Shown: positions 25,577 through 40,796, counted from the first letter of the stretch. The stretch: DNA of 64,000 nucleotides from a virus (IMGVR_UViG_3300014697_000001:96001-160000), one strand, 5' to 3'. The notes: a model not told the origin generated them from the sequence alone. Made by a program: numbers and translations.

Positions 25577-25585
25577 AGGGAATAA

Positions 25586-25626
25586 GTGGAGGGGCGAAAA
25601 CCCCTCCATTCTTTTTTTCTTTTTTG
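25586..25626 (+). terminator. intrinsic terminator
   Basis: TGGAGGGG-CGAAAA-CCCCTCCA followed by a long T tract. Confidence 0.8.
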
Positions 25627-25627
25627 T

Positions 25628-26347
25628 TCAGACCCGCAGGTTTTTCGGGTGCAGTCCCGCAACCAGTTTCTGCGTTACCTTGGCACAGCATTCGGCCTTG
25701 GTGATCTTGCCATCTTTGTTGATGTCAAGGCCTTTGTTCTGCACGTAGGTAGTTGGGCGAGTCTTTTCATCCCAGAGCACGTAGTCATCGGGCTTGCCAA
25801 CACCGACCGGCCAGAGAATACGCAGGTACACATCCCCCAGGTTTTTCAGCTTGCCTTTGTACGGAGCAAAGAATTTGTGCACGTAGATCAGCTGTTGTTC
25901 GGCCGTGAGCTTAAGTAGAGCCGGCAAGGTAATACCGACATCTTTCGCCGCGGCCGCACCAAACTGGATGAGTCCGTAGTAGGGAGCGCCGGCGCCGTTT
26001 TTGATCGTCGGGGAGAAGGTCTCGCCGGTTTCGAATGCCATGCATGCCATCAGGTCATCCGGACCATTGTCGGGCATTGCCAAGTTGTCACAGATGTGCT
26101 TGACGATGCGGATGAATTCGTCACTGACCTTTTCCGACCAGGCCGTAGCCTTGCAATAGTCCAGGAAGATTGTATCAAGGTCATGTTCCTCAACCGCCCG
26201 CTTGCGCGCGGCTTCAGAAAGACGCCTGGCGTTCATGAAAGACCCATGACTCAATGGACCCCAGGCACCGTCGATGGCACCGGTATAAAGACCCATGGCT
26301 TTCATACTGCGCTGAAGTGATTTCAGTTGATTAACCGTTGCCGCCAT
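25628..26347 (-). CDS. endolysin: peptidoglycan-binding domain + lytic transglycosylase/lysozyme-like domain
   Basis: LQRSMKAMGLYTGAIDGAWGPLS (PG-binding-1-like); MAFETG...YYGLIQFG (SLT-like); DINKDGKITKAE EF-hand-like loop. Confidence 0.85.
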   Translation of the reverse strand: MAATVNQLKSLQRSMKAMGLYTGAIDGAWGPLSHGSFMNARRLSEAARKRAVEEHDLDTIFLDYCKATAWSEKVSDEFIRIVKHICDNLAMPDNGPDDLMACMAFETGETFSPTIKNGAGAPYYGLIQFGAAAAKDVGITLPALLKLTAEQQLIYVHKFFAPYKGKLKNLGDVYLRILWPVGVGKPDDYVLWDEKTRPTTYVQNKGLDINKDGKITKAECCAKVTQKLVAGLHPKNLRV

Positions 26348-26993
26348 TTTGCACCTCAAACCGCTGGGTGAAGTCCAGGACGATTGTATCGATCATGGCC
26401 TTCAGGTTAGTGAACGGTGTATCGCGAACGGTGTACTCGGTATCATCCAGCGCACTGCCGGCATGATGAGCCATGTACTTGAGGCCTTGCCCCACCAACG
26501 TCAGTGGCGTAACAGGACTGTTTTCATACCGGGTGATATGGATACCGTTGCGATACTCCATACCTTTTGCAGCGATTAGCCGCGGAATCGCGATACTGGC
26601 AGTCTGATCGGCCGCTGCCTGGGCGTAGGTTTCCAGATTCAATGGCGGGGTAGTGAGCTTGACATTAAGGAAGTCGTTGATGATCCCATCTTCAAGATAC
26701 AGCATGTCCTGGGTGCTACTGATTTTATTGCGCATGTAGAACGTGGTGTGGTTTGGCCGGTCCTTGGGTTGGTACAGGGTGGCGATGCCGCCGTTATACG
26801 GAGCCGGTTCGCTTTCTCGCCAGTACTCAATCTGATACCCGATCAGGGCATAGACATATTGCGAGGCATAGTTGAATACGGTTGCTTTTCGAATGCGGCA
26901 GTTGGCATTCATGACAGGGCCCTGTGCAGTATCGAGCCGGTGAACCATGAATTCACCCCGATCAGGGCCGTGGTAAAGTTCGAGTGTAGTCAT
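26331..26993 (-). CDS. hypothetical protein (last gene of modification cluster)
   Basis: 220 aa, overlaps both neighbours. Confidence 0.65.
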   Translation of the reverse strand: MTTLELYHGPDRGEFMVHRLDTAQGPVMNANCRIRKATVFNYASQYVYALIGYQIEYWRESEPAPYNGGIATLYQPKDRPNHTTFYMRNKISSTQDMLYLEDGIINDFLNVKLTTPPLNLETYAQAAADQTASIAIPRLIAAKGMEYRNGIHITRYENSPVTPLTLVGQGLKYMAHHAGSALDDTEYTVRDTPFTNLKAMIDTIVLDFTQRFEVQNGGNG

Positions 26994-27454
26994 TGCTTAA
27001 AGAACTCCATGTCTATGTGTCCATTGAGGTAGTTTGATACCAGAGCTGCACGCAGCTCGCCATTTATGGATGGCTTTACCAGATGAATTACATCCCCTCG
27101 GATGATAACCATTCTACCTTGCCGAGGTTTGATTTCCAAAGCTTCGTTGTCTGGATCGACCACCAACTCACCTTCTGCGTCCAGAAGATAGAGGATCGAA
27201 GTCAGGTGGTACGGGAGGTGGTCATGGGGAGTGACTCCTTCAATACCGACGTGGACGTGCCCACACACCATCCAGAGCGAGGGGGTAGCATCCGGATGAT
27301 TGGCAAAAACGATGTCGCGAAGAACCGATTTCATGTAGTCGTTTATTCGCGGATCGGTGATGTGCGAGAGTTCCTTTTCCGCATACATGGCATCAAGAAG
27401 CCACTCCGGTGGTTCAATGCCTTCAACGATGATATAATCGCCTGGTTTGATCAT
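26990..27454 (-). CDS. Fe(II)/2OG oxygenase-like (DSBH) protein, type B copy 2
   Basis: PHDH...TSILYL...HLV...R. Confidence 0.75.
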   Translation of the reverse strand: MIKPGDYIIVEGIEPPEWLLDAMYAEKELSHITDPRINDYMKSVLRDIVFANHPDATPSLWMVCGHVHVGIEGVTPHDHLPYHLTSILYLLDAEGELVVDPDNEALEIKPRQGRMVIIRGDVIHLVKPSINGELRAALVSNYLNGHIDMEFFKQ

Positions 27455-27464
27455 GATACGACAC

Positions 27465-28013
27465 TCACACAAAGTAGCATTCGTTAACCAATGAGAGACG
27501 CATGTCCTCATTGACAGTTGGGACACTGTGCTGGATGTAGCTCGGGATTATCCACAGATCGCCGGCCTTGGGCGTGACGCGATAGTTATCAAAATGCTCA
27601 TCGCGTATTCTGCGTGAATAACCGCGTGATGCAGTGAATCGCGGATCGCTGACCATCAGTCCCGAGGTGTAATCAAAGGGGTAAAATATACTGGTGATGC
27701 CCGAACTGCCGTGAATGTGAGCACCCAGTTCGGTGCCTCGCTTGATCCATTTGCCAAATGTGTCGAGCACCATATCCTGAGGTTCAATGTTAAAGACCTC
27801 ACGGATGTAACGGTGAAGGGCATCGGTTATCAACCCATCGCGAAATGCGCAGATGAGTGGAAATTCCTCTGCAGTGACCACATAAGGTATCTTTGATTCG
27901 GGTGGTGTGGCGTCGTTCAACAGAAAGATTTCATTCGCCAGCCCCTCTATATCCACCTGACCGGCAAAGTTGACGCATGCCAGTTTGATTCTCCAAGGCT
28001 CAATAAAGTCCAT
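27465..28013 (-). CDS. Fe(II)/2OG oxygenase-like protein (TIGR02466-like), type A copy 2
   Basis: HIH...DPR...PKAGDLWIIPSYIQHSV...RLS. Confidence 0.8.
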   Translation of the reverse strand: MDFIEPWRIKLACVNFAGQVDIEGLANEIFLLNDATPPESKIPYVVTAEEFPLICAFRDGLITDALHRYIREVFNIEPQDMVLDTFGKWIKRGTELGAHIHGSSGITSIFYPFDYTSGLMVSDPRFTASRGYSRRIRDEHFDNYRVTPKAGDLWIIPSYIQHSVPTVNEDMRLSLVNECYFV

Positions 28014-28554
28014 TGTCGCGATTCTCCCATCGGTTGGTTCGCAAGATAGTGAATATGACGTCTTTATCGAGTCCTTCAGGCGTTGCCTCGGCCAAGGGCC
28101 TGAGTTCGTCACTGTCCGATATATCGCAGACTATACCCACACGCAGTTCCGGATGTGGCGACGGATGTGCCGAATGCACTGTACTGCCACGAATGATCAC
28201 TAATCTGCCGGCTTTTGGAAAGACTTCAACAGCCTCTCCCAATGGGTCTACAACAAGGGCGCCTTCTGCATCGGTCAGATAGAGAATTGCAGTCAACAGA
28301 TAGGGTCCGTGATCATGGACACCGACTCCATAATTCCCTTGAAGTACGTGTGCCGTTGCAGCAAACGCACCCCGATGACCGGCACCATGACTGGAAATTG
28401 CCAATGGTGCGAGTATGTCGCGTGCGTAAGGCCAGATGATCTCGTCTCTAACCTGCGACTTATCCGGATAAATCAGGCATTCATGGATTAACTTCTCGTC
28501 GAACTCAACCCCGTCGATAATGATGTATTCGCCATCGGCTATCATAGCGGTCAC
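28000..28554 (-). CDS. Fe(II)/2OG oxygenase-like protein, type B copy 1
   Basis: VHDH...TAILYL...PKAGRLVIIRGSTVHS...R. Confidence 0.75.
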   Translation of the reverse strand: MTAMIADGEYIIIDGVEFDEKLIHECLIYPDKSQVRDEIIWPYARDILAPLAISSHGAGHRGAFAATAHVLQGNYGVGVHDHGPYLLTAILYLTDAEGALVVDPLGEAVEVFPKAGRLVIIRGSTVHSAHPSPHPELRVGIVCDISDSDELRPLAEATPEGLDKDVIFTILRTNRWENRDNGLY

Positions 28555-28559
28555 CGACT

Positions 28560-29126
28560 CTAAACGTTCTTACGAAGGTAGTATTCGTGTAGCAGTGACA
28601 GTCTTACGTCCTCTTTTACATAGGACACGCTGTGCTGGATGTAGCTCGGAAAGATGTATACATCGCCTGCGCGCGGTGTGATTTTTACAGTCGAGAAGAA
28701 TTTGTCACGGATTTCCTTAGGGTATCCTCGACAGGCATTGACCCTGGGATCGAACATATTCAGGCCCGAGACGGAATCACTTGGGTACACAATCGCGCTG
28801 ATGCAGGAGCCGGGATGATAATGCGGAAACAACCCTTCGCCTTCCGGAATCCATTTGGCATTGGTCTCTACCTCATATCGTCCGGTGATGTCGTATTCGA
28901 ACACTTCATTGGAATACTCACACACCTTAGGCGTGATGATCTGGTCACGGGTATGCATGAGGATTGGGATCAGCTCAGGGTCTAGAAACTTCTGGTCGAT
29001 GTCTTCATCGGTGGCCATGTTGTTAAGCATGAAGACTTCATTATTCAGTTCGTTGACATCGATGCCAAAGTCGGTAGCCAGGTTGAAATGACCCAGTTGA
29101 ATCTTCCAAGGATGAATGATGTTCAT
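28560..29126 (-). CDS. Fe(II)/2OG oxygenase-like protein (TIGR02466-like), type A copy 1
   Basis: HYH...DPR...PRAGDVYIFPSYIQHSV...RLS. Confidence 0.8.
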   Translation of the reverse strand: MNIIHPWKIQLGHFNLATDFGIDVNELNNEVFMLNNMATDEDIDQKFLDPELIPILMHTRDQIITPKVCEYSNEVFEYDITGRYEVETNAKWIPEGEGLFPHYHPGSCISAIVYPSDSVSGLNMFDPRVNACRGYPKEIRDKFFSTVKITPRAGDVYIFPSYIQHSVSYVKEDVRLSLLHEYYLRKNV

Positions 29127-29572
29127 ACGTCACCTGCATTGTTGATTTGTTCAAGTCCTTGCTCGGTACATTCCAGGTAGAAATACCTGACCGTCTGAGG
29201 CGACCAGCCGGTCTCGAGCCAATTTGGCAGGGTGTTCACCGCTGCCAGAATTTTTTCATAGGTGTCAGGGTCTTGACTGTAAGGTACAAAGTACTGGTCA
29301 TGACCCATAAACAGGTCGGGATCGTCCAGGCTTTCTTGAATATCGAACCCATAGACTTCGTGCAACTTGGTGGCATAGATCACTGCCACGGCATAGCTCT
29401 TGGCTGGATAGATCAACGGGAATGTAGCACTGGTATAGTAATGCAGGGCATTGTTGACCAGTTCGGGATGTTCGATGATTTCCATTTTGGCAAAATCATC
29501 ACTGTGGTCTAGGACAAGTTCATGATAGAGACGTTGGTATTCTTTATAGATAGAACGATCAGTCATCACCAC
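29123..29572 (-). CDS. hypothetical protein in modification cluster
   Basis: 149 aa, overlaps both neighbours. Confidence 0.7.
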   Translation of the reverse strand: MVMTDRSIYKEYQRLYHELVLDHSDDFAKMEIIEHPELVNNALHYYTSATFPLIYPAKSYAVAVIYATKLHEVYGFDIQESLDDPDLFMGHDQYFVPYSQDPDTYEKILAAVNTLPNWLETGWSPQTVRYFYLECTEQGLEQINNAGDV

Positions 29573-30614
29573 GCACCGGATTCGTAGAAGGGTTGAGGTC
29601 CCAGCGGTTTTTCATATCCAACAGACATTCATCATGACCGATATGATGCATGATGAGTTGGACATCGCCACGGGCACAGTGATCCATGAAACAACAATCG
29701 CCACACGCAGGATGGTTGCTGTAGTTCAGCAAGTTATTGTAGTACATTTCCGAGCGGTAGTCTATTACCGCCTCGGCTGTCCACGGACGAGGCACAATAA
29801 ACGCATCCGAAAACAGAGGAAACTTTTCCATGAGCACCGGGGTGTAATAGAGTTCGCCTCGATGATAAACCACCTCAACACTGTCCGAAACTGTAGGGAT
29901 CAGGTATCGGTTGTACCGCGTGTCTTTGCACTCATGGATACCTCTTGTAAATGCTGCGAAATCCCGTATAAATTCCTGACGAACCAGCAGATTATCGAGA
30001 CCTCGCCTGGAGTGAGGGAAGACATACTCCACCAGCTTTTCCATGCCGATGTCCAGTTCCTGAACCATTTGGTTGTTGGTCAGTGAGAACTCCTCGACGC
30101 TGGCATTGACCATGTTTATTGTCAGGTAGACCAGCTTGAACTGGGTCTCGTGCATGTGTTCATTCAGTATCTGAATCCGGCGCTTGATCATCGCCAGGTA
30201 TTTGGGATTGCCTGCATTTTTCAAGGTGGCTGGAACCACAAGGCGAAACTTCTTCCCCGCCATTAATCGGTCAACCTTCTTGGCAAACTCCACCAAGCCA
30301 GTATCAAATAACAATGCCAGTGACACGGTCAATGAGCTGTATCGTTCGGCCAGGTCTTTAACTAATGGGCTGTCTAGAATCGACAGCCCTGACTTGGACG
30401 AGACTACATCCGTAGGGCCTAACGTCAGCTCGTGCAAGCGATAACCGGCCTCTTTCATCTGGTCTGCTAGAATGATGAGACGCTCGTGATCACCGGGGCC
30501 GACAAAATCACTGGTAGCATTTTTATCGATAGCGCAATCGGCGCAGGAATATCCACAACCCTTTAAAATCTCAAGCGTAATGTTAAACGCCAGATCACTT
30601 TGATTGGACAGCAT
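29559..30614 (-). CDS. divergent radical SAM-like protein
   Basis: CGYSCADC; C-terminal CGDCCFMDHC...C; GPTD in place of GGE. Confidence 0.7.
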   Translation of the reverse strand: MLSNQSDLAFNITLEILKGCGYSCADCAIDKNATSDFVGPGDHERLIILADQMKEAGYRLHELTLGPTDVVSSKSGLSILDSPLVKDLAERYSSLTVSLALLFDTGLVEFAKKVDRLMAGKKFRLVVPATLKNAGNPKYLAMIKRRIQILNEHMHETQFKLVYLTINMVNASVEEFSLTNNQMVQELDIGMEKLVEYVFPHSRRGLDNLLVRQEFIRDFAAFTRGIHECKDTRYNRYLIPTVSDSVEVVYHRGELYYTPVLMEKFPLFSDAFIVPRPWTAEAVIDYRSEMYYNNLLNYSNHPACGDCCFMDHCARGDVQLIMHHIGHDECLLDMKNRWDLNPSTNPVRGDD

Positions 30615-31620
30615 ATTGCAGCCCCACTAAGCATTCTCGTATGGAGAGCATTTCCATGATGGTGGTGATCCCCTTTTCACTACAGCTGCTGAGGTACTCG
30701 CACGTTTCACAAGCAGTACCGGCGATATGCTTAAGTGAGCTCTCCAATGCCTTGCTACGGTGTGCTAGCAGGTTATCCATTGTCCAGGGACGCTTGATCA
30801 CGAACGCCTCGTTAAGGAAGGCATAGTCGTCTTTAAGGAAGGGTACCCAGTGAAGCTTTCCATCGGTATAAAGCAGGTTGACCATGGTGCCGGTGTCTAG
30901 GCACAGGTCAGGGTTCCGACGCCGTTCATCGACCCCGGTGAGCTCACTGTAAAATGAGCTGATTCGATGTGAGATGGCTTTAACCGATTCGCTGGTGGTC
31001 AGATCCAACCGCATCGACCGACCATAGGGAATGTTGAGAATATCGTCCTTGTCTACGGGAAATTCGACATCAAACCCCTTGAGCATCCGGTCTTCGAAAT
31101 CATCGGTCACGGTGTCTCTGGTACAGTTTATGACAAAACCCGCTTCGTTGAGGTAGGCTCTTTTCAGAGTATTTTTGATAAAGGTTAACTTACTGTCGAT
31201 CATTTTCCCAAACTTACCCGTCTTAAAGAAATCAGGGGCGGCCGGGATCAAAAAACGTATTGCCTTACCGGGAAATGCATCATCGATTTCTCGACACATC
31301 TTGGCGTAATTGTCAAGGTTCTTATCGAGAAAGGCAGCATTGATGGTCACCTGTTCAAACATCTGGCCCAGTTCTTTGACGATCGGGTTTTGGAAGACTT
31401 CCAGGCTGTTGTCTGCAGACATGTAATCTGTCGGACCCATGCCAAGGTCAAACGCTACATACCCGGCACTGCGCATCTCATTGATCAGCGCCAGTAACTC
31501 GGGCAGGTCGTAGATATCGCCTCCCAGGGTACGGTCTATCATACACCCAGAACACGAGTGCGCACAGCCTTTAAAAATGTCAAGCGTGATTTCCAGACGC
31601 TGCCTATGGGGTACTTTCAT
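30595..31620 (-). CDS. divergent radical SAM-like protein
   Basis: CAHSCSGC; C-terminal CETCEYLSSC...C; GPTD in place of GGE. Confidence 0.7.
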   Translation of the reverse strand: MKVPHRQRLEITLDIFKGCAHSCSGCMIDRTLGGDIYDLPELLALINEMRSAGYVAFDLGMGPTDYMSADNSLEVFQNPIVKELGQMFEQVTINAAFLDKNLDNYAKMCREIDDAFPGKAIRFLIPAAPDFFKTGKFGKMIDSKLTFIKNTLKRAYLNEAGFVINCTRDTVTDDFEDRMLKGFDVEFPVDKDDILNIPYGRSMRLDLTTSESVKAISHRISSFYSELTGVDERRRNPDLCLDTGTMVNLLYTDGKLHWVPFLKDDYAFLNEAFVIKRPWTMDNLLAHRSKALESSLKHIAGTACETCEYLSSCSEKGITTIMEMLSIRECLVGLQYAVQSK

Positions 31621-32557
31621 GTGCTTCCCACCGCTTTAATAGATTATAGAATCCGTTGCACGAGTCCTCGAGGGACTTGACAGGACGTAGATGCTCAGAC
31701 AGGCATCCGCCTTTGTACTCACACGCATTGCAGAATTTATTCTTTTCAACCCGTTTACGTTCGCCTTCACACCATCGATGATAGTCGGCCATGTCCTTGA
31801 TCGGTAGGAAAAACTCTCGATCATTGAGGTCAAATTCCAATACTGCGAATGTCCCCTCTGGAGTTACGTAAAGGTGGTCGTCACTGTAGGAGTGGCCATA
31901 ACCGTCCACTGCCCGAATGATCTGTTGCTGATTCTCGATGTGAAACTTACGCTGGGGATGATGAATCAATGCCCATACCAGGTTTTCGTACTCGCTGAAT
32001 GAGACAGTCTGTTGGTTGGCCTGATTCTCGCTGTAAGGTTTTATTTCTACAGATTTGGCATTGGTCATGAGATTATACGTCATGACCATCTCATCAACCG
32101 AAACGGTATCTAGAAGTTCCCGACTGGCCAGGGTCAGCAGGTTGAACCATCGAGGTAATGAAAGGATATTGCTAAAGACCTGATCAGCCTTTTCACGTGC
32201 TGAAAAGTCATAAGAGACGCTGAGTTCATAATCCTCGTCTAGCACTATTTCGTTGACGGCTGTCAGGTTCGTGATCAACACGATATCGTCGATGCCGCGG
32301 CTATGCAGCACTGCTTTGACCTCAGCTAAATAGCTTGCAGGCAGTAAAGCAATTTCACCACCATAGAGGTCGATGTGAGTAATATGATACCCTTCGGCTA
32401 GAACCTCGTCGATGCGCTGCTCCAGTGCATCGATTGGCATTCTGGTCCGATCCGACAGTTTTTCAGGAGGCAGGTAACAGAAATTACATCTCAGGTTGCA
32501 ATAATAGCTGAGGTTGACACTTAAGGTAAATTCTTTACCGGCATGGGATATCGACAT
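31604..32557 (-). CDS. radical SAM protein with partial SPASM-like C-terminus
   Basis: CNLRCNFC, YGGE, CNACEYKGGCLSEH...C. Confidence 0.85.
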   Translation of the reverse strand: MSISHAGKEFTLSVNLSYYCNLRCNFCYLPPEKLSDRTRMPIDALEQRIDEVLAEGYHITHIDLYGGEIALLPASYLAEVKAVLHSRGIDDIVLITNLTAVNEIVLDEDYELSVSYDFSAREKADQVFSNILSLPRWFNLLTLASRELLDTVSVDEMVMTYNLMTNAKSVEIKPYSENQANQQTVSFSEYENLVWALIHHPQRKFHIENQQQIIRAVDGYGHSYSDDHLYVTPEGTFAVLEFDLNDREFFLPIKDMADYHRWCEGERKRVEKNKFCNACEYKGGCLSEHLRPVKSLEDSCNGFYNLLKRWEAHESTP

Positions 32558-32613
32558 GACTGACCTCTACAGTGTAGATGTCCTGGAACGTTGGTTCCAG
32601 GACATCATGACAT

Positions 32614-33750
32614 CTACCCCTTAAAGATAAGTGGCAGGGACTCATCTTCATAGGGCGTGGGCTCAAGAAAGTCCTCCATGCCATTTAGGCGGATTATCTC
32701 TGGAGCAAGTTCTTTCATGGTCCTGCAGTGGTGCTCTGTCAGACCTAGGCGCTTGGTGTCCCTCACCGTTTTTCGACACCCGTTACAGATCTGAAACATC
32801 GGGCAGGCATAACACGCATCTTTCATGGCCTGAATATCGGGGGCGTTCTGAAGAGGGGTGAAAAACTCACCTGCCATCTCACGCTCAAAATCGATCGGAT
32901 ACTCTCCATCGTCCCCAAACGCACCGCACGAGTAATAGCTATTGCCGGGCTGCAGGCTCCGGATACCCTCATCACAGCTACGGTTCAGCGGACATACGGT
33001 GTTCTGTATCCGCAGTCGACGCATCATTGAGGTGGTGTTGTGTTCCCATTCGGCCAGACCAGCCTTTGCGATCTCAACGTAGTGCCGGTAGATATCGGCC
33101 TGAGTAAACATGGAGTTTGCATTACCGATGGTCACTCCTTTAAAGACCACCGGCTCACCCGAGGCTACTGCATGGTTGATCTTGGCGACTACACCCATCT
33201 TCTTGGCCAATTCTACTGTCTTTAAGATGGTGTCTTCGTTAGACTTGTCGATGACCGCAATAAAGCTTGGTCGATACCCGACAAGTTCAAGCATGAGGTC
33301 TGAACATGCCCAGAATTCTTCTTCGCTAAAGGGTGTAAGATCACCTTTCAATCGGGCATCGCCGTATTGGAACGAAGTCCCGACACCCATTCTCTCGTGC
33401 CTGAAAAGATCAACCCACATCTCAGGTTTCTTGTAAAATGCCCAGAGGTTGGTGGTAAACGAGATGCGCGCCGGACAGTTATGTTTATCAAGGATCTTGA
33501 TCATGTCCCAGTAGTACTGGGGTTTCATCATCAAGGGATCGCCCCCGTTGACAATTACTGTCCGGGTGTCTGGGAACCTTACGATAAACCGTTCAAAGTC
33601 TTCTAGCTCGACAATCGCATTGTCGTCCTCAGAAATATGGGTACTTGAACAAAACGTGCATTTAAAGTTGCAACGTACGGTGGGCTTGATGATGAGATCT
33701 ATTTTATAATCCTCCTGCCACGTCACCTTATCGCCGGTGACAATGGACAC
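32614..33750 (-). CDS. radical SAM/SPASM protein
   Basis: IIKPTVRCNFKCTFC, NGGDP, C..C...YSC, CYACPMFQICNGC...C. Confidence 0.9.
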   Translation of the reverse strand: MSIVTGDKVTWQEDYKIDLIIKPTVRCNFKCTFCSSTHISEDDNAIVELEDFERFIVRFPDTRTVIVNGGDPLMMKPQYYWDMIKILDKHNCPARISFTTNLWAFYKKPEMWVDLFRHERMGVGTSFQYGDARLKGDLTPFSEEEFWACSDLMLELVGYRPSFIAVIDKSNEDTILKTVELAKKMGVVAKINHAVASGEPVVFKGVTIGNANSMFTQADIYRHYVEIAKAGLAEWEHNTTSMMRRLRIQNTVCPLNRSCDEGIRSLQPGNSYYSCGAFGDDGEYPIDFEREMAGEFFTPLQNAPDIQAMKDACYACPMFQICNGCRKTVRDTKRLGLTEHHCRTMKELAPEIIRLNGMEDFLEPTPYEDESLPLIFKG

Positions 33751-33756
33751 GCAAAG

Positions 33757-33930
33757 TTAGTGCGCCGGTTTGGGGCGCTGTCTAAGATGGTTGACCATGT
33801 TGATGATGGTGTATCCATCGGTCACCAACTCCCTGGCAGGGTAATCGGTAGGTTCCATTCCGTTTTCTTCCATCCATTGGATGGCTTGGTTATATCCGTC
33901 TGCCGACAGAGGAAAATCCTTAATGTTCAT
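33757..33930 (-). CDS. small hypothetical protein
   Basis: 57 aa (MNIKDFP...) directly upstream of an rSAM gene. Confidence 0.5.
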   Translation of the reverse strand: MNIKDFPLSADGYNQAIQWMEENGMEPTDYPARELVTDGYTIINMVNHLRQRPKPAH

Positions 33931-34126
33931 GGGATGCTGTCTCGACGCCGTTACCGTCATTGTGATAAGGGGTGTCGTTAATCGGGATATGGCGCCGTAT
34001 CACCGAAATTAGAAAATACCCGCTAGCCTTAATTCATACAAACTGCCGGTGTTATAAAATAAAATAATCGAGACAGCATATTCTTCATTCCCATGTGGAA
34101 CCTATAGTTTACCGACACATGCACAA

Positions 34127-34154
34127 TAGGTCACGGGGAGTTCCCCGTGACCTA
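34127..34154 (-). terminator. hairpin dividing the cluster into two blocks
   Basis: TAGGTCACGGGGA-GT-TCCCCGTGACCTA. Confidence 0.7.
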
Positions 34155-34158
34155 GTCG

Positions 34159-35157
34159 TTATACGCCTATTGCCTTGAACATTTCCTTTATCTGACAGGT
34201 GGGGTTGCCATCGTCGATAAAGGTGTGGTGAAGAAAGCACCGCATTCCGCAGCGCGAATAGTACTCACATGAGAAGCAGTCGTATTTCTCAACGAACCGT
34301 ATCTCTGCATCATCCTTGGCTTTGAGTCCTTCACCTTCGTCCAGGATCGCATTCTTTCCTGCCTCTGACCAGCAGGTGCTGACAACCCCGTCCTTATTGA
34401 TGATCTTGGTTGATCGGCAGGTGGTCTCATTGAACGTGTTCCGTTTCCAATCCTTGATAGGGTAGGAATTGGGGTAACGCTCGTTGAGAACCAGATAAAG
34501 TTTCCCAATTAGTTCTTCATCCGGCTGGATGTATTCGTACATCTGGCTTGGAATATAGTGATCGAAATAAACATCGAATTGATCACACATCCACGTCACT
34601 TCACGCCCTTCCTCATTGTTGAGAAAGGCATTGATGTTTTGTTTAGTGATCACGACATTGACTGTTCTCACATACTCCTTGACCTTATCCAAGTTATGGA
34701 CAAACTTGGCCCGACCTATGCGATCGAAACGTCCGGCTGGATCGTAAGAGGTTGCAATCTGCGTACGGCCATGCACATTGAGACGCTCGACCAAATTAAC
34801 CAACCTATAGACCCGGTCGTAGACAAGGTTAGTCCCAAGAACCAGAATACAGTCATCGAAATGCTCAAATATCCGTTTACCGGCCTGATAATACCGTTCG
34901 AAGAATTCATCTGAGAATTCGTCTAGGAACAGTTCACCACCGGTCATATTCACTACATAGGGCTGACGCGGATCGGTATTGGCAATGAGTGTCTCTGTCT
35001 TTTCCTGGATGGTGTCGAATCCAACTTTAGAGTCATGATCCTGATGACAGAATGAACACCTGAGGTTACAGTATTCGAAAAGGATCAAATGGGCTTCTTT
35101 CCAGTGCCCTTTTTTCTCTTTCAGTATATCGACCACCGGTATTAGGTGATCTACCAT
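34159..35157 (-). CDS. radical SAM protein with SPASM-like C-terminus
   Basis: CNLRCSFC, TGGE, CFSCEYYSRCGMRC...C. Confidence 0.85.
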   Translation of the reverse strand: MVDHLIPVVDILKEKKGHWKEAHLILFEYCNLRCSFCHQDHDSKVGFDTIQEKTETLIANTDPRQPYVVNMTGGELFLDEFSDEFFERYYQAGKRIFEHFDDCILVLGTNLVYDRVYRLVNLVERLNVHGRTQIATSYDPAGRFDRIGRAKFVHNLDKVKEYVRTVNVVITKQNINAFLNNEEGREVTWMCDQFDVYFDHYIPSQMYEYIQPDEELIGKLYLVLNERYPNSYPIKDWKRNTFNETTCRSTKIINKDGVVSTCWSEAGKNAILDEGEGLKAKDDAEIRFVEKYDCFSCEYYSRCGMRCFLHHTFIDDGNPTCQIKEMFKAIGV

Positions 35158-36215
35158 TCGCTACCCTCCATCAGTGCTCTGACCTGAGCGTCATCGAGCC
35201 GGATAACGTGGCGGATGAGGTTCTCGTTATACTTGGCGGAATCGACATGACCGAGCCTGAAATTATCCTTACCCCCATCGAACAAACGGCGAATGCGGGC
35301 GATCACATTTTCATAGACAGTCATGTCGGATGTGTCCAGAAACAGTTGACGAAGTCGGTCAGAACGAGCCGCTGACGGCAGGTCACCGCAATCGGTCAAC
35401 ACCAGTACGATCTTTTCAAGGAGATCGATATACCATTCATCTGGGTAGCGTTTCTTTTTGTTTTCCGGCGAACGAATGAACGGGTTGGCCAGTTCACCAA
35501 AGTTGACACAGGCCTCAAAGATGCTATTGCTCGCCAACAGCGATTCTTCTGTTGCACCTGAGATGTCCCAGCGAGTGGGGTCAGCAATGATCCGTCCCCA
35601 ATCATCCAGTGCATCCAGGCTGTTACTCATGGCGGTTCGGCGCATGATATTACCGATAGTGTCTGGGACAGTGCCTACTGACTGGGTTGACATCATCTTT
35701 ATAATGCGCCATTCCAGCGAGGTGTAGTCTGGGCGCGCTTTAATCAGTCGTCTGAGCGGAGCGACCAGTGGGTCGTCCTTATGTTCCCATAGCTCTTTGA
35801 CGATATCTGCATTGATTAAGATGGCCATTTCGTGACCGAATACCCGGTCATAGAACGTTACAGTCGAAGTGCTGTATGTGGCCTTGATGCAGATGAAGAA
35901 CGTCTTAAACGTACGGTAGTCGATCTTGGGAAACAGCGCAAACAGCAAGATTGCGTACATGCGAGTGTATGTCTTTGAGTCTGCAAAGACATACACTTTG
36001 TCATTGAATTCCATTGCCTTTAGAAGCAATGCGTAAAACTCAGACGGAGTAAAATCGTCAAGCGACATACCCCATCCGAGCTGAGTACCTAGACCAAGAC
36101 TTCCCGGAAAGTCGAGTCGTTGGTAGCCGCGATTTTCCGATATGTTTATCTGATGGTCGGAGGGTTTTGACTGAAACTCCGACTCCACATAAACGTCACC
36201 CAGCAAGTGGAACAT
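35151..36215 (-). CDS. hypothetical protein in modification cluster
   Basis: 354 aa; no motif recognised. Confidence 0.7.
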   Translation of the reverse strand: MFHLLGDVYVESEFQSKPSDHQINISENRGYQRLDFPGSLGLGTQLGWGMSLDDFTPSEFYALLLKAMEFNDKVYVFADSKTYTRMYAILLFALFPKIDYRTFKTFFICIKATYSTSTVTFYDRVFGHEMAILINADIVKELWEHKDDPLVAPLRRLIKARPDYTSLEWRIIKMMSTQSVGTVPDTIGNIMRRTAMSNSLDALDDWGRIIADPTRWDISGATEESLLASNSIFEACVNFGELANPFIRSPENKKKRYPDEWYIDLLEKIVLVLTDCGDLPSAARSDRLRQLFLDTSDMTVYENVIARIRRLFDGGKDNFRLGHVDSAKYNENLIRHVIRLDDAQVRALMEGSEW

Positions 36216-36218
36216 ATC

Positions 36219-36968
36219 TTAGTCCTCTTCGTGTGCCGCAGTGATCATGCGGTCCAGTTGTTCCTGGTCGAGACCATATCTGGCAACGGTTGCCATGTAT
36301 AGCGGGTTTTGAGGCACTGCAAAGTACGTGTACAGATTTTTACCTGAGAACACGTATTCGTTGAAATGGAACGGGCTATAGGTCATAGCTTCCAGAGGGA
36401 TGTCGTCGATCAACAGATGGAACAACGGATGCGCGATCAGATGAACATAGTTGATACCCGCCATGTTCTCATCGTCTGGAGTCACCGGCCACTTGTTAAA
36501 GAATTCCCGATCGACACTGGAGTCTGTAAAGAATGCATAGAGTCGCAGTGCGGCGATTCGACGCAACCAGACATTGATTATGTCGATGTTGGCTTCAATG
36601 AAGTCACTAGGATCAAAGCTCAGCAGACACGGGTGGTTGGTGTGATATAGCAAGATGTTGATCACCACATCCAGCAGATCATCGATCTTAGCCAGTGCCG
36701 GATGGTGCATGTATGCTACCACCAGCTCAAGCGACTCGTCCTGATTTTCCAACATCAAGCGACACTTAAGATCAAGGTTACTGAGGTAGGTGATCAGTAC
36801 TTTGTTCTTGAATTTACTGTTTTTATAATCGATTATAAATTCAATGTCTTCGGTGAACTTGCGCTTGAGATCGACAATCGGGATAGGTGCACATGTGGTC
36901 AGGTGTACTGTGGGTGCTGCCGGGACGGGGGTGTCAGAACTCTCGATGATGGCTACTTCAGTGGTCAT
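36219..36968 (-). CDS. hypothetical protein in modification cluster
   Basis: 249 aa, GGAG RBS, directly downstream of the repeat protein. Confidence 0.7.
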   Translation of the reverse strand: MTTEVAIIESSDTPVPAAPTVHLTTCAPIPIVDLKRKFTEDIEFIIDYKNSKFKNKVLITYLSNLDLKCRLMLENQDESLELVVAYMHHPALAKIDDLLDVVINILLYHTNHPCLLSFDPSDFIEANIDIINVWLRRIAALRLYAFFTDSSVDREFFNKWPVTPDDENMAGINYVHLIAHPLFHLLIDDIPLEAMTYSPFHFNEYVFSGKNLYTYFAVPQNPLYMATVARYGLDQEQLDRMITAAHEED

Positions 36969-36986
36969 GGTGTGCGCTCCAGGTGA

Positions 36987-37691
36987 TTAACGGCGGCCAC
37001 GGTTTGAATGGCAGTTCGAGTGGCAGCTCGAATGGCAGACAGGGACGTTCGAGTGACAGCTCGAATGGCAGCTCGAATGGCAGACAGGGACGTTCGAGTG
37101 ACAGCTCGAATGGCAGACAGGGACGTTCGAGTGACAGCTGGCATGGCAGCTGGCATGGCAGCTGGTGTGACAACTTGAATGACAGCTCGAATGGCAGTAT
37201 GTCGTTGTGAGTGTCTCAACCACCGGGTTTCCAGCTTTCGACCACCATTCTTGATAAAGCGCGTTACAGTAATTGACAAACCCTTGGCTGGTCGCATCAC
37301 TGCCGGACAGCAGTGGAGAGGCCGATTGGCCCGTCAGTCCCGCAGGTCCGGTTGCATAGTTGCCGATGGCGGTTGCATCGAATCGCGTTAGAAGGCTGCC
37401 ATTACTGTTGTAATAGACGATCATGCGCTTTTTACATGCCTTGGCAAATACCGACACGAACGCCTTAAGCGCGGTGTTGATTTTTTCCGCCGTAGCGTTT
37501 CCGTCGAACGCGGTTGTGGCGCTGGTGAGGCTTGGCATGTTTGGGGCTGCTTTGGTCCCTGCAAACCAACTCGCCGGGATGTATGCATTGGGGATGTTGT
37601 CGTTACCATAAACGATCTGGGACCTGATTTTGTCCCCAATCAGCAGGTTAACATCCGCTATTGCTTGGGTCTTACCCAAATTTGTAGCCAT
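36987..37691 (-). CDS. putative modification substrate with C-terminal (Cys-His-x-Ser/Asn)14 repeat
   Basis: 234 aa; residues 166-230 are CHSS/CHTS/CHAS/CHSNVPV/CHSN units, then RGRR. Confidence 0.8.
   Translation of the reverse strand: MATNLGKTQAIADVNLLIGDKIRSQIVYGNDNIPNAYIPASWFAGTKAAPNMPSLTSATTAFDGNATAEKINTALKAFVSVFAKACKKRMIVYYNSNGSLLTRFDATAIGNYATGPAGLTGQSASPLLSGSDATSQGFVNYCNALYQEWWSKAGNPVVETLTTTYCHSSCHSSCHTSCHASCHASCHSNVPVCHSSCHSNVPVCHSSCHSSCHSNVPVCHSSCHSNCHSNRGRR
37002..37196 (-). repeat. coding tandem repeat (12-bp and 33-bp units)
   Basis: perfect 33-mer GCTCGAATGGCAGACAGGGACGTTCGAGTGACA at 37026, 37071 and 37104. Confidence 0.95.
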
Positions 37692-37697
37692 ATCAAC

Positions 37698-38735
37698 TTA
37701 CCCCTTAAAGATAATGTTTGATGTCGAACTGCGACCCGAAAGATACCGCAGCGTGTGTTTGAGTCCGCCGCAACGATTTCCTTGCCAGGGAAGGCGATGA
37801 CAGTCACCACCACAGAGATCAAAGACATCGCAGTGCGTGCAATTTGGATTGAAATCCAATTCTTTTACGATTTCATTAATACGGCCCTCGGACATAAGAA
37901 ATTCATCAGCCGTATTCTCGATGTGAGCATGGCGATGTTCTGTCGCCATGTTAGGACATCCACCCAATGTACCATTTGAGTTTATGGTCACAAGGTTCTG
38001 TTCACAGTTTCGACAGTTTGTGTCGGTCTTGACCAGATTCTGTTTTAGTTTCTTGAACAGGATGTCAAGTGTCTGGATAGTGCAGGCCGGTTTTCGCTCC
38101 TGGTATCGCTTAGCCAGTGCCAGATACCACTCATCTTGTTCTGTGTTATCTGGAAATATCGCCGGATGCCAATGGGTATTCCCGCCAATGGTCAAACGTT
38201 CCAAGGAGATGGCATCTACCCCAAAGGATTCGAACTGATCCAGCACCCAGTCGGCGCTGGACGCTACCAGCTCTTTACTGACGGATACTTTCAGATAAAC
38301 AGTAAACCCTCGATCTTTGAGGATCTTCACGTTCTTACGCCACAGAGCTATCTGTTTCTCGTTGTCCCATCTGATCCAGTGATCCCAGCTAGTACCTATG
38401 GTCTTGTTGAATCGCCGCTCCATGAAGGAAATGATGTCATCGGTTAGCTTGAATGTCAGATTACTGTTTCCACACATACTGACGTTCTGCATGTCATCGA
38501 ACTTACTGGCAAAGTACTCCAGTTTTTCGACAGGAACCAGGAAAGGTTCACCGCCATGGTATTCAAGATGTACGTGTGTACCGGGGTCGTAATGTGACAT
38601 GAAGTCTTTGATCCATGTCGCAGTGGCATCGGGATCAAATTGCGTTTTATCGCCGCTCTTGCCGTTGGTGAAGCAGTGATCACAATTTAGGTTACAGGTC
38701 CCGGTGGTTTTGACATAAATCGTTTTAGATGACAT
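37698..38735 (-). CDS. radical SAM/SPASM peptide-maturase-like protein
   Basis: VKTTGTCNLNCDHC, YHGGEPF, CRNC...GGCP, CTHCDVFDLCGGDC...C. Confidence 0.9.
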   Translation of the reverse strand: MSSKTIYVKTTGTCNLNCDHCFTNGKSGDKTQFDPDATATWIKDFMSHYDPGTHVHLEYHGGEPFLVPVEKLEYFASKFDDMQNVSMCGNSNLTFKLTDDIISFMERRFNKTIGTSWDHWIRWDNEKQIALWRKNVKILKDRGFTVYLKVSVSKELVASSADWVLDQFESFGVDAISLERLTIGGNTHWHPAIFPDNTEQDEWYLALAKRYQERKPACTIQTLDILFKKLKQNLVKTDTNCRNCEQNLVTINSNGTLGGCPNMATEHRHAHIENTADEFLMSEGRINEIVKELDFNPNCTHCDVFDLCGGDCHRLPWQGNRCGGLKHTLRYLSGRSSTSNIIFKG

Positions 38736-38736
38736 T

Positions 38737-39258
38737 CTATAACTTCTCGATGATGAATGACTCAAGACCGATGCTTAGCATCGTGTTCTCGGTGATGTTA
38801 ATCGCTTCATGAGGATAGTGGGCGGGCATTTGCATGACGTCCCCTTCATGTAACTCTATCGAGCATTCGGGGTTGCGAAACACCTTGATCCCAGACAGAA
38901 GAACAACCACGACCGTGTCCGGATCAGTGTGCAGTGGAAAACTGGCACCGCCGGCAGGGGACTTGAACAGATGGCATGTAACAGGTCCCTTATGCCCCAA
39001 GTGAATGGCTAGAGTGTTGCATCCTTCAAAGAATGCCCGGTTTAGTTTTTCAATACCTTCTATCTTGATGACAGGCTCCAGGAGCCTGCTGTAAAGATTG
39101 GTGATGCTGCTTGCAACATGCCCTTGGTGTGCGGCGTCGATGTATTTGATAATGCCTTGCTCGTAAGAGTATGGACTTGACAATATGTCGTCGAACGGCA
39201 GTGGGGCGTTGAGCAATTCTGCAACACCTGGTGTATCGCGTTTTAATCGAGTGAACAT
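38737..39258 (-). CDS. JmjC/cupin-4 (ribosomal oxygenase-like) 2OG hydroxylase
   Basis: FPLHTDPD...LSGIKVF...LHEGDVMQMPAHYPHEA; GAGG RBS before ATG 39258. Confidence 0.8.
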   Translation of the reverse strand: MFTRLKRDTPGVAELLNAPLPFDDILSSPYSYEQGIIKYIDAAHQGHVASSITNLYSRLLEPVIKIEGIEKLNRAFFEGCNTLAIHLGHKGPVTCHLFKSPAGGASFPLHTDPDTVVVVLLSGIKVFRNPECSIELHEGDVMQMPAHYPHEAINITENTMLSIGLESFIIEKL

Positions 39259-39272
39259 GGCTAACCTCATAG

Positions 39273-39301
39273 CTAGGAGGGCTATACAATAGCCCTCCTA
39301 G
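39273..39301 (-). terminator. hairpin between tail-fibre-like genes and the cluster
   Basis: CTAGGAGGGCTAT-nnn-ATAGCCCTCCTAG, followed on the minus strand by CTATG. Confidence 0.65.
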
Positions 39302-39314
39302 TATAATTATAACG

Positions 39315-40754
39315 TTAACTCCACTGAGCAGGCCATATCTGGCGCCACACTCCACCGATGTAAGCCTGCAGCGTACCACTGACCTCACGCAACGAGGTAG
39401 AAACCGAACTGTTGACCATGACATACCGGCTGTCGTGATCGCCCGCCAGGATGTGGTCATGCATAGCACCTGCCAACAACAGAGTCGCACTGCTGTTGAC
39501 GTTACGTTCCCGCGACACCTCATTCGGAATGTTGCTCAGTCCGACTTGTGTCTTGGTCACCGCGTGCGGGTTGTTCAAGTTACTTACGTGGGTGTTGAGC
39601 AGTGCTCCAGCCTGGAACGTAATCGCTTCTTTGGTCCGCAGGGGGGTCATGAAGCGTGTGGACAACGTACCGGCCTCAGCTTCCGTCTTAGTGGCGGTAC
39701 TGTAGTTATCCACACTGCCCAGACCCACTTGAGCCTTGGTGACACTGTGTGGATTACTTACGTTGGCGGCGTGCAGTACATACGCATCACCCACCTGAGC
39801 GGCAATCGCAGCTTTAGTCACAGAGGCGGTCATGTACTTGTCGGTTGCCGTACCACTGACTCCCTCTGCGGAGCTGGCAGTACCATAGTTCAGTACATTG
39901 CCCAGACCCACCTGGGCCTTGGTCACGTTATGTGGGTTGGTCTTGTCGGCAATGTGGGTGTCCACTGCTTCTTTAACCAACTTGGCGATCAGCAAAGTTG
40001 TGGTGGCTGGGGTCATGTAGCGGGTGGGAAGTTCTCCAGCCAATGCCTCAACAGACGTGGCTGGTGGGAAGTCCTCCACCAAGCCCAGCCCCACCTGAGC
40101 CTTAGTCACCGCGTGTGGATTGGCCTTGTCCGACACGTGCGTGAACAGTCGAGCATCCACTGCCCGAATCTCGGTTTCAAGATCATCACGAATGGTCTGC
40201 ATCTGCATGCGCAGTTCATCGTGAGATGCTTCGTCACCCACCAGGATTGCATTACGAATACTTTCTAGCTGAAATACCACGTACTCCCAGCCATAGGTAT
40301 CGCCAATGTCATGGATGTGGGGTGCCGCAGGATATGCCAGAGGACGACCAACCAACGACCCCCATTTAACCGGACGCTCATCCAGATCAAGGGTGTTTAT
40401 CAGGTCGATCAGGGCGTTCATGTTCCATGAATATTCGCCACCGACTACCTGATAGTCCATGCTGACAATAATGGGTACATTGGTCTTTAGCAAAACAGCG
40501 GATTGGACGTCTTTACCAGTGCGCAGGGCGGCCTGTTGGAAGGGCTGACACAGAACGTAATCGTCTACTGGGCGAAGAACTTCACCGGTCTCAGTATTGG
40601 TCAGTACCATGCTTTCGGTATAGAACGGCCCTGCTGCGGGCACAAACGCACGCTCACGTGTGTTGGTGATGCTTCGAATTTCGCCCACTATCCGGTTGGT
40701 GGGCGATGTCCCAAGCTTATCCAGTGGGTAGGTGATGATCGGAAGATTAGCCAT
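39315..40754 (-). CDS. tail fibre-like structural protein (phiKZ gp145/146-like)
   Basis: four H-x5-NPHxVTKxQVGL repeats; C-terminal GGVWRQIWP. Confidence 0.75.
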   Translation of the reverse strand: MANLPIITYPLDKLGTSPTNRIVGEIRSITNTRERAFVPAAGPFYTESMVLTNTETGEVLRPVDDYVLCQPFQQAALRTGKDVQSAVLLKTNVPIIVSMDYQVVGGEYSWNMNALIDLINTLDLDERPVKWGSLVGRPLAYPAAPHIHDIGDTYGWEYVVFQLESIRNAILVGDEASHDELRMQMQTIRDDLETEIRAVDARLFTHVSDKANPHAVTKAQVGLGLVEDFPPATSVEALAGELPTRYMTPATTTLLIAKLVKEAVDTHIADKTNPHNVTKAQVGLGNVLNYGTASSAEGVSGTATDKYMTASVTKAAIAAQVGDAYVLHAANVSNPHSVTKAQVGLGSVDNYSTATKTEAEAGTLSTRFMTPLRTKEAITFQAGALLNTHVSNLNNPHAVTKTQVGLSNIPNEVSRERNVNSSATLLLAGAMHDHILAGDHDSRYVMVNSSVSTSLREVSGTLQAYIGGVWRQIWPAQWS

Positions 40755-40796
40755 GTGGATATACTCGATGTCTGTCAGAGAGGACTAGCCTCTCCA

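Follow-up and report, generated by a model that had tools for sequence, protein, structure and literature searches.

Radical SAM enzymes accompany an invariant Cys-His-x-Ser tail on a probable virion protein in a phage-restricted gene cassette

This report concerns a block of 17 genes in IMGVR_UViG_3300014697_000001:96001-160000, a 64,000-nucleotide stretch of viral DNA (hereafter the window, from whose first letter positions are counted) that was cut from an IMG/VR virus record of 250,515 bp (bases 96001-160000) whose completeness is estimated at 94%. Six of the genes encode radical S-adenosylmethionine (rSAM) enzymes, five encode double-stranded beta-helix (DSBH) or cupin proteins, and one, g15, encodes a protein ending in repeated Cys-His-x-Ser units followed by RGRR (the CHxS tail). 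I argue that the block is probably a phage-specific post-translational modification cassette acting on the (Cys-His-x-Ser)n-RGRR tail of the neighbouring protein, which would itself end up in the virion. Such cassettes are common in large phages and restricted to phages, and the motif that would be their substrate is invariant, previously undescribed and apparently part of the virion. rSAM/SPASM maturation systems are known almost only from cellular cofactor pathways and from those for peptides that are made by the ribosome and modified after translation (RiPPs). The phage cassette seems to work like such a protein-maturation system while being a member of no curated family, and there is a substantial chance that both its chemistry and its virion role are new. 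A preliminary description of the window, made from the sequence alone, had read the block as a complete RiPP-like tailoring pathway; a unit around the repeat protein and a virion-bound product are the parts of that reading that survive, whereas its completeness and membership in the named systems are not supported.

Proteins with a CHxS tail form a large family. When all of 1.84 billion cluster representatives (50% identity) were searched with a profile, 861 CHxS clusters came up at E <=1e-3 and 619 at E <=1e-10. Across 304 distinct family sequences the Cys and His at the unit positions are 100% conserved, and 240 of the 304 carry exactly three units plus RxRR at the C-terminus. The usual member is about 180 aa long and ends in the consensus [VI]-C-H-[SAT]-S-C-H-S-[SN]-C-H-[GSN]-[SNA]-R-G-R-R-COOH; outside the tail, the N-domains contain a median of 0 Cys and 1 His. 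Among cultured phages, PA10_00065 of pPa_SNUABM_DT01 (hereafter DT01) has the C-terminus ICHTSCHTSCHSARGRR, ORF068 of RSL2 has VCHSSCHTSCHGSRGRR and AUZ94952 of Atu_ph07 has FCHSSCHASCHNSRSRR. The window's own protein carries exactly 14 C-H-x-(S/N) units, as the preliminary description had counted, and its gene lies directly downstream of g16, the clearest SPASM gene of the window. The 14-unit array is atypical: the conserved family form has three units, and arrays of 11-15 units are confined to the window's own small subclade. Tandem Repeats Finder (TRF) detects long periods of 33, 45 and 78 bp with 92-96% matches in the g15 array, and to judge from such sequence comparisons the 14 units are a recent DNA-level expansion of the three-unit ancestral form.

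Ahead of the tail, AlphaFold (AF2) predicts an alpha/beta fold with a predicted local distance difference test score (pLDDT) above 90, and it models the tail as a helix with low confidence. Fold searches with the N-domain gave no convincing match by Foldseek against PDB (E >=0.6) or by VIA-align (Z <=5.1), and BFVD returned uncharacterised homologues only. A word-indexed search with the repeat protein found 135 relatives, none named and none with a Pfam domain. The same protein found nothing by tblastn, because of low-complexity filtering and the divergent N-domain, and the CHxS homologues came from synteny and the family profile. One metagenomic protein (P0154, 453 aa) has a Gly_rich_2 domain (PF21722, E 7e-11) fused ahead of the CHxS N-domain and tail.

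One argument for a functional unit is the company that the tail keeps. With the CHxS family profile I retrieved 59 IMG/VR loci and labelled their open reading frames (ORFs) by the window's proteins; the counts that follow are over 67 CHxS loci, 53 of them well flanked. The rSAM orthologue groups rest on first-pass phmmer labels, because iterated hidden Markov models (HMMs) merged the rSAM families, and the g13 count was made after HMM iteration. In 60 of the 67 loci the CHxS gene has a g16 orthologue directly upstream. Every one of the 53 well-flanked loci has g14; g16, g12, g10 and g09 are present in 51 each, g13 in 50, g17 in 49 and g06 in 47, and a 2-oxoglutarate (2OG)-type gene is usually present too. 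The usual order is cupin, rSAM/SPASM, CHxS, g14, g13, three further rSAM genes, g06 and DSBH. The core of nine genes, joined by one or more of 2OG type, is syntenic in no fewer than 53 viral loci. The accessory genes g07 (19 loci) and g08 (18 loci) are, together with g01, g11 and two particular fibre genes, restricted to the window's jumbo subgroup.

The association also holds from the enzyme side. Among the best 80 loci found with g16, 77 have a downstream CHxS gene on the same strand, with three units in 73 of these 77 genes, and the other three loci end at the contig end. The preliminary description had proposed a synteny survey and had stated beforehand that its case for one post-translational modification unit around the repeat protein would fall if related phages carried the enzymes without such a protein. 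The survey bears the unit out: enzymes and CHxS gene co-occur both in the 60 of 67 loci and in 77 of 77 evaluable SPASM loci. A complete pathway, as had been claimed, is another matter, for of the 17 genes only about nine are conserved, together with one or more of 2OG type, and completeness would have to be read into them. Arrays of three units and of 13-14 units sit beside the same gene set, and the recurrence of the same tail and gene order in dozens of independent viral contigs means that the arrangement is not due to chance.

Three variant loci (L061, L062 and L067) depart from this plan. Each has two tandem CHxS paralogues of 133-138 aa, and four to five rSAMs of g07/g08 type replace g16, the cupin and g10. 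These loci pair another type of rSAM with CHxS genes, so more than one rSAM lineage is tied to the tail.

The cassette is restricted to phages, and bacterial genomes are almost entirely without it. A g16 profile matched at least 357 viral loci in IMG/VR, and only three hits turned up in 185,579 species genomes of bacteria and archaea. Among 50,697 deposited phage records just 15 have the enzymes (DT01, RSL2, RSF1, the FLC phages, SURPRISE13, RsoM3USA, Atu_ph07 and Phosso). The lineages concerned are phiKZ-related, Rak2/T4-like and marine myoviruses, and the loci with the core genes include DT01, RSL2/RSF1-like phages, Atu_ph07 and T4-like marine contigs. A 4268-bp contig of a Dysosmobacter segnis assembly (L149, NZ_JACOQI010000054.1) contains cassette genes only, namely an expanded CHxS tail, g14, g13 and two rSAMs, and is probably phage DNA within a bacterial assembly. 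A 208-kb contig binned as Gemella in a metagenome-assembled genome (L150, USNF01000001.1) has the variant tail ...CHSSCHSNCHHR and several rSAMs.

Where does the CHxS protein go? Attai et al. 2018 (PMC6102473) identified 131 virion proteins of Atu_ph07 by electrospray tandem mass spectrometry (ESI-MS/MS) of gel slices. Their Table S5 lists gp170 at 31.89 kDa with 8 unique peptides and 35.16% coverage, detected in fractions 1-9 with its maximum in fraction 1, at the top of the gel. The computed masses of AUZ94952, the CHxS homologue (31.89 kDa), AUZ94958 (66.07 kDa) and AUZ94959 (21.66 kDa) equal those of gp170, gp176 and gp177, and this exact agreement for three genes identifies gp170 as the CHxS protein. 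The virion list passes from gp143 to gp170 to gp176, a gap which means that gp171 (the rSAM/SPASM enzyme), gp172 (the cupin) and gp165-169 (the enzymes encoded downstream) were not detected. The presence of the CHxS homologue in virions suggests that the enzymes probably act on a structural protein and not on a secreted peptide; the preliminary description's preference for a modified virion protein gains support accordingly from gp170 and from the absence of its enzymes. The position of gp170 in the gel is also unusual. Fraction 1 otherwise holds proteins of 75-139 kDa, and proteins of 7-15 kDa peak in fraction 13 (PMC6102473); by my own count, Table S5 lists about 33 virion proteins that measure 25-40 kDa and have three or more peptides, and of these gp170 alone peaks above fraction 4. 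This is consistent with a high-mass form resistant to sodium dodecyl sulphate (SDS) and heat.

These data bear directly on the possibility that the cassette makes a released product, in which case the N-domain would be a long leader and the CHxS units would be modified and cut out as a metallophore, redox cofactor or antibiotic-like RiPP, freed at lysis. An invariant core behind a variable N-terminal part does recall the cofactor precursors PqqA and MftA, many-unit arrays recall multi-core precursors, and the SPASM enzyme adjoins its precursor as in RiPP clusters. However, the homologue was recovered from purified virions with 35% coverage, the N-domain is predicted to be a confident, conserved fold and not a disordered leader, and RGRR stands after the core, not before it. 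Moreover, Pfam, NCBIfam and PHROG scans recognised a precursor-like tail and enzymes in the cassette but no peptidase, transporter or RiPP recognition element (RRE); the preliminary description had likewise seen no peptidase or ABC exporter, and none is recognised among the 17 genes. I consider a released product quite improbable.

The genomic surroundings of the cassette fit a structural protein as well, for in unrelated lineages it comes after genes for tail fibres, baseplates or giant structural proteins. Fibre-like genes precede it in the window, in DT01 and in RSL2, and the window's two fibre genes are syntenic in DT01- and RSL2-type loci. The Atu_ph07 cassette adjoins the gene for the fibre-like virion protein gp176 and is near that for a 4449-aa structural protein. 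In the T4-like loci L061 (689-10060) and L038 (3-10411) the CHxS gene or genes come directly after giant ORFs of 2846 and 3277 aa, and some metagenomic loci adjoin T4-type baseplate or neck genes. As far as Supplementary Table 2 of PMC5468394 goes, the Ralstonia phages RP12 and RP31, which are related to RSL2, have a different rSAM set after two YomR-like fibre genes, consisting of a 537-aa rSAM, a 360-aa anSME-like protein, a 419-aa MoaA-like protein and MgoB. A different set at the corresponding place would suggest that this is a hot spot for modification modules.

A virion protein with a Cys/His tail need not be modified at all. The tail might serve a fibre or baseplate protein as a structural metal site, or supply the rSAMs with a cluster or with electrons, the enzymes acting elsewhere, for example on fibre proteins. 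The CxxxC spacing with adjacent His would put the ligands on one face of a helix, which is how AF2 models the tail, albeit with low confidence. Phage fibres do hold His-ligated metal ions, as in T4 gp37, and fibre genes lie next door in the window. Marine phages rich in rSAMs also carry iron-sulphur (Fe-S) assembly genes (PMC5332604). Yet the enzymes are linked to the CHxS gene, which stays in place when the upstream structural genes vary by lineage; growth from three to 14 units poorly fits a single defined cluster site; and the variant loci again place a different rSAM type beside CHxS genes. I therefore regard an unmodified metal or Fe-S tail as unlikely.

The enzymes themselves point to peptides or proteins as substrates. 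All six rSAM proteins have CX3CX2C at residues 19-30 and a Cys-rich SPASM/twitch-type C-terminus, in agreement with the preliminary count of six CxxxCxxC proteins. A full SPASM arrangement with 7-8 C-terminal Cys is found in g16, g10 and g12 (by eye in the latter two), and g09, g08 and g07 have CxxCx5C...C only. Two of the six score above the PF04055 gathering score (g10, 43.3-45.3 bits; g09, 35.7-36.8 bits). The others score below it (g12, g16 and g08) or have no match (g07), and their rSAM membership is therefore based on the CX3CX2C motif and paralogy. No further PF04055 match was found in the rest of the 250-kb genome. The six are highly divergent from one another, the sole clear paralogue pair being g07 and g08 (26% identity, E 8e-39). 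The best NCBIfam matches of g16, which has no N-terminal RRE-type extension, are PapB (the best of them), YhhB, AmcB, FxsB, anSME, DynA and DarE, all an order of magnitude below their cut-offs; a profile of 34 g16 orthologues searched against PDB places 8vpo, anSME (4k37), CteB (5wgg) and ChlB (9gm3) ahead of MoaA. The nearest curated or solved relatives (PapB, YhhB, AmcB, anSME, CteB and ChlB) act on peptides or proteins. With all these curated scores below cut-off, the relationships suggest SPASM peptide- or protein-modifying enzymes outside every named family.

The same enzymes might instead modify DNA, nucleotides or a cofactor, the repeat protein being unrelated. Weak MoaA and QueE matches and the genes resembling dihydrofolate reductase (DHFR) in RSL2-type cassettes point in that direction, but MoaA and QueE score far under their cut-offs and match less well than the peptide maturases do, no other pathway genes are present, and both the strict CHxS linkage and the position in the late structural block speak against it. 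A nucleotide or cofactor pathway is thus very improbable. In RSL2-type phages (L002:20036-21185, L002:18008-18967) two DHFR-like genes lie mid-cassette, and a g07/g08-like protein is without the N-terminal CX3CX2C and keeps the C-terminal CxxCx5C...C.

The other presumed enzymes of the window are five proteins that had been described as Fe/2OG oxygenases. As to fold, this is supported for g03 and g05 by PF13759 and for g17 by Cupin_2 (PF07883) and, marginally, JmjC_2 (PF08007), but the PF13640 matches of g02 and g04 are below cut-off. The four DSBH proteins form two paralogous pairs, g02/g04 and g03/g05, each 42% identical. Over window positions 26990-29126, H-x-H (HVH/HDH, HIH, HDH, HYH) replaces the H-x-D/E of the usual iron triad in all four, and g17 has H-T-D. 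Three-His sites are typical of thiol dioxygenases. The H-x-H motifs make 2OG dependence uncertain, and on sequence grounds the four DSBH proteins may not be 2OG hydroxylases.

If the cassette does modify the tail, the following course can be imagined. Late in infection the CHxS protein would be made, its N-domain of about 165 aa folded and its tail flexible. g16 and the core rSAMs g12, g10 and g09 would then carry out 5'-deoxyadenosyl radical chemistry on the CHxS units one after another; the presence of the same enzymes beside 3- and 14-unit arrays suggests such unit-by-unit action. Cys is the thioether donor in sacti- and ranthipeptides. Each CHxS unit offers both a Cys, as in those systems, and an H-x-S triplet, as in the substrates of HtkB and HaaB (PMC11499958), and the likeliest reactions would be Cys-derived thioether bonds, crosslinks from His to a side-chain carbon, or both. 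The cupin and the H-x-H DSBH proteins could perform oxidative steps on Cys, His or Ser, and the orphans g14, g13 and g06 might serve as recognition or scaffold subunits. In the product, a protein associated with the tail or baseplate would bear a rigid CHxS tail, possibly one that binds metal or is covalently crosslinked. An invariant tail on a variable N-domain suggests a defined chemical end product, not a diversifying antibiotic.

More specifically, and more tentatively, such a multi-enzyme rSAM/oxygenase pathway might act on a virion protein associated with the tail or baseplate and make its invariant (Cys-His-x-Ser)3 tail into a new structure, crosslinked or metal-binding, possibly linking the protein covalently into a high-mass assembly. 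It would be the first case of a virion structural protein modified by enzymes in the manner of a RiPP, with new Cys/His chemistry, in a family of at least 861 sequence clusters; I would not put its chances quite at even.

Several points weigh against modification of the tail. No modification has been seen in any CHxS member, the Atu_ph07 proteomics paper not having searched for one. Evidence from virions is limited to a single phage, in which the homologue's N-domain is longer (296 aa), and the high gel position of gp170 could be due to aggregation or to an SDS-resistant oligomer and not to covalent chemistry. The Cys/His tail could simply bind metal, unmodified. The analogy with RiPPs is incomplete, since no RRE, peptidase or transporter can be recognised in the cassette, and the two DHFR-like genes inside RSL2-type cassettes hint at small-molecule metabolism.

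How does the cassette compare with known systems? The preliminary description had named CXXX-repeat, Hxs and ranthipeptide/triceptide systems, and none of their curated cut-offs is reached. Against the PapB-type maturase NF047865 g16 scores 51.8 bits (cut-off 340), and the tail has no Asp/Glu acceptor. The best score in the 250-kb genome for the CXXX-repeat maturase TIGR04115 is 15.3 bits (cut-off 350). HxsA (TIGR03979) has no match in the genome, HxsB (TIGR03978) reaches 25.6 of 370 bits and HxsC (TIGR03977) 27.7 of 268, and the triceptide maturases YhhB, AmcB, XyeB, GrrM and FxsB give 39.7-49.4 bits against cut-offs of 370-445. Of the profile searches proposed at the outset, those with PF04055 (g10, g09), TIGR04085 (g16) and PF13759 (g03, g05) were positive and those with TIGR04115 and TIGR03977-03979 were not.

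Likenesses exist nonetheless. As in ranthipeptide and sactipeptide systems (PapB/PapA with CX3D, CteB), a SPASM rSAM stands beside a substrate with a Cys every four residues; unlike in those systems, the proposed substrate is folded, measures about 180 aa and occurs in virions instead of being a short exported peptide, and the cassette is phage-encoded, has four to six rSAMs plus oxygenases and is without RRE, protease or transporter. The SPASM enzyme QhpD crosslinks QhpC, a Cys-rich protein encoded next to it, and the product remains a protein. CrpC/CrpA of Methanococcus voltae (PMC13692751) resembles the cassette in the same respects, with a Cys-rich protein substrate beside a SPASM enzyme and a product that stays a protein. 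Both of these systems are cellular with a single rSAM, however, whereas the phage system has several, and the substrates have no detectable sequence relationship. As for cyclophane (triceptide) synthases such as HaaB and HtkB, the latter of which forms a bond from His C2 to Lys C-beta (PMC11499958), and for Hxs systems, each CHxS unit holds H-x-S/N in the aromatic-x-X3 register. The cassette tail differs from triceptide and Hxs substrates by an invariant Cys before every His, and all scores are far below cut-off. Chemical stabilisation of virion components is itself familiar from the isopeptide chainmail of the HK97 capsid and the His-ligated iron of the T4 gp37 fibre tip, which are autocatalytic or simple metal binding. 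Stabilisation may be one purpose of a modified tail, but HK97 and T4 gp37 need no dedicated rSAM or oxygenase enzymes such as the cassette encodes.

Parts of the cassette have been seen before. The FLC6 and SURPRISE13 papers list cupin, rSAM and 2OG genes as 'accessory', the DT01 paper loosely links six rSAM genes to DNA repair or the boosting of host metabolism, and a broad comparative study of jumbo phages leaves radical SAM genes unmentioned. A marine virome study (PMC5332604), concerned here with Fe-S metabolism, notes as many as 12 rSAM genes in T4-like genomes. A literature search, whose cover excluded most subscription journals, found no paper describing the CHxS family or the cassette as a unit. 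If the proposed reading is true, it would explain the genes that phage papers call 'accessory' or 'DNA repair / metabolism boosting', add enzymatic maturation of tail and baseplate proteins as a new layer of virion biology, and introduce new Cys/His radical chemistry in which four to six rSAMs and unusual H-x-H DSBH proteins converge on one four-residue unit.

Table 1. Features of the cassette and its flanks, in window coordinates
Feature	Position	Strand	Remarks
Transglycosylase-like protein	25628-26359	-	phrog_4928, baseplate hub phrog_196; last gene of co-directional block
g01, orphan, 220 aa	26331-26993	-	accessory, jumbo subgroup only; no family match; in 6 loci
g02, PF13640-like DSBH, 178 aa	26990-27526	-	PF13640 24.5 bits, below cut-off
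g03, PF13759-type DSBH, ~182 aa	27465-28013	-	PF13759 29.2 bits; listed ORF reaches 28112
g04, PF13640-like DSBH, H-D-H, 184 aa	28000-28554	-	PF13640 20.1 bits, below cut-off; 42% identity to g02
g05, PF13759-type DSBH, H-x-H, 188 aa	28560-29126	-	PF13759 45.4 bits; 42% identity to g03
g06, orphan, 149 aa	29123-29572	-	core; phrog_20737 (unknown function), E 3e-40
g07, atypical rSAM, 351 aa	29559-30614	-	accessory; CX3CX2C at residue 20; no Pfam/NCBIfam match
g08, atypical rSAM, 341 aa	30595-31620	-	accessory; GPTD instead of GGE; paralogue of g07
g09, rSAM, twitch-like CxxCx5C...C C-terminus, 317 aa	31604-32557	-	core; PF04055, motifs
g10, rSAM, SPASM-like C-terminus, 378 aa	32614-33750	-	core, best-conserved enzyme; PF04055; orthologues of cultured phages 53-66% identical
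g11, small orphan, 67 aa	33757-33960	-	accessory; in 4 loci only
g12, rSAM, SPASM-like C-terminus, 332 aa	34159-35157	-	core; CX3CX2C at residue 30, GGE, CxxCx5Cx3C...C
g13, orphan, 354 aa	35151-36215	-	core; orthologues in T4-like loci very divergent
g14, orphan, 249 aa	36219-36968	-	core; phrog_20767 (unknown function); AF2 pLDDT 92
g15, CHxS-tail protein, 234 aa	36987-37691	-	~165-aa folded N-domain (predicted), 14 C-H-x-(S/N) units, RGRR-stop; proposed substrate
In-frame tandem DNA repeats encoding the expanded array	37009-37197	-	TRF periods 12, 33, 45, 78
g16, rSAM/SPASM, 355 aa	37698-38765	-	CX3CX2C at residue 24, 8 C-terminal Cys; TIGR04085 28.2 bits (cut-off 27)
g17, cupin/JmjC-like DSBH, 177 aa	38737-39270	-	first core gene; Cupin_2 31.9 bits (cut-off 27.2), JmjC_2 22.5 (cut-off 22, marginal)
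Two tail-fibre-like genes, 479 and 760 aa	39315-40754, 40797-43079	-	tail/virion structural PHROGs, E down to 1e-128; directly upstream, same direction

The layout of the block (Table 1) agrees with the preliminary description in all countable respects: six rSAMs, four DSBH proteins, one JmjC-like protein, five orphans and one repeat gene make up 17 co-oriented ORFs that abut or overlap and fill 26331-39270, within a region (25628-43079) where every gene is on the minus strand. The endpoint it gave, 39258, does not hold: the ORF begins at 39270, and 39258 falls on a Met inside it. For g03, alignment with its paralogue g05 indicates that the start is most likely the Met at 28013, not the GTG at 28112.

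None of the five orphans (g01, g06, g11, g13 and g14) has a Pfam or NCBIfam match, and two fall only into PHROGs with function unknown. Fold searches with g14 were without match (Foldseek E >=0.28; VIA Z <=4.1; Atlas TM by query <=0.33), as was its profile against PDB sequences, and hhalign showed no relation between g14 and g16. Neither these negatives nor those for the CHxS N-domain make the folds new ones. The profile of g06 likewise had no match among PDB sequences, and Atlas feature searches gave no usable match for g06 or g13. A profile of g13 orthologues weakly matched rhodanese-type thiosulfate sulfurtransferases among PDB sequences (E 0.012-0.016 over 44 residues), the matching Cys not being conserved in the window's g13.

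Both flanks had been described. The tail-fibre-like genes upstream match tail and tail-fibre PHROGs, as expected. At the other end, the supposed endolysin at 25628-26359 is transglycosylase-like, and its DT01 orthologue is annotated as 'putative transglycosylase'. Among PHROGs it best matches long proteins of baseplate-hub type, in their C-terminal parts, so it may be a virion-associated lysin and not the endolysin. The region's strongest terminator-like hairpin (25585-25610; 10 bp, then a T-run on the plus strand) lies just beyond it, between the convergent genes on the plus strand and position 25628, where the minus-strand block ends, and may terminate transcription on both sides. In scans for promoters and terminators the counts were near the shuffled expectation.

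A nucleotide search with the whole block against the 50,697 phage records found no match, the closest relatives being visible only at the protein level. Wastewater and sludge metagenomes contain near-identical short contigs over window positions 36600-38000, mostly at least 99% alike and with wastewater runs from at least three studies; these contigs end inside the repeat array.

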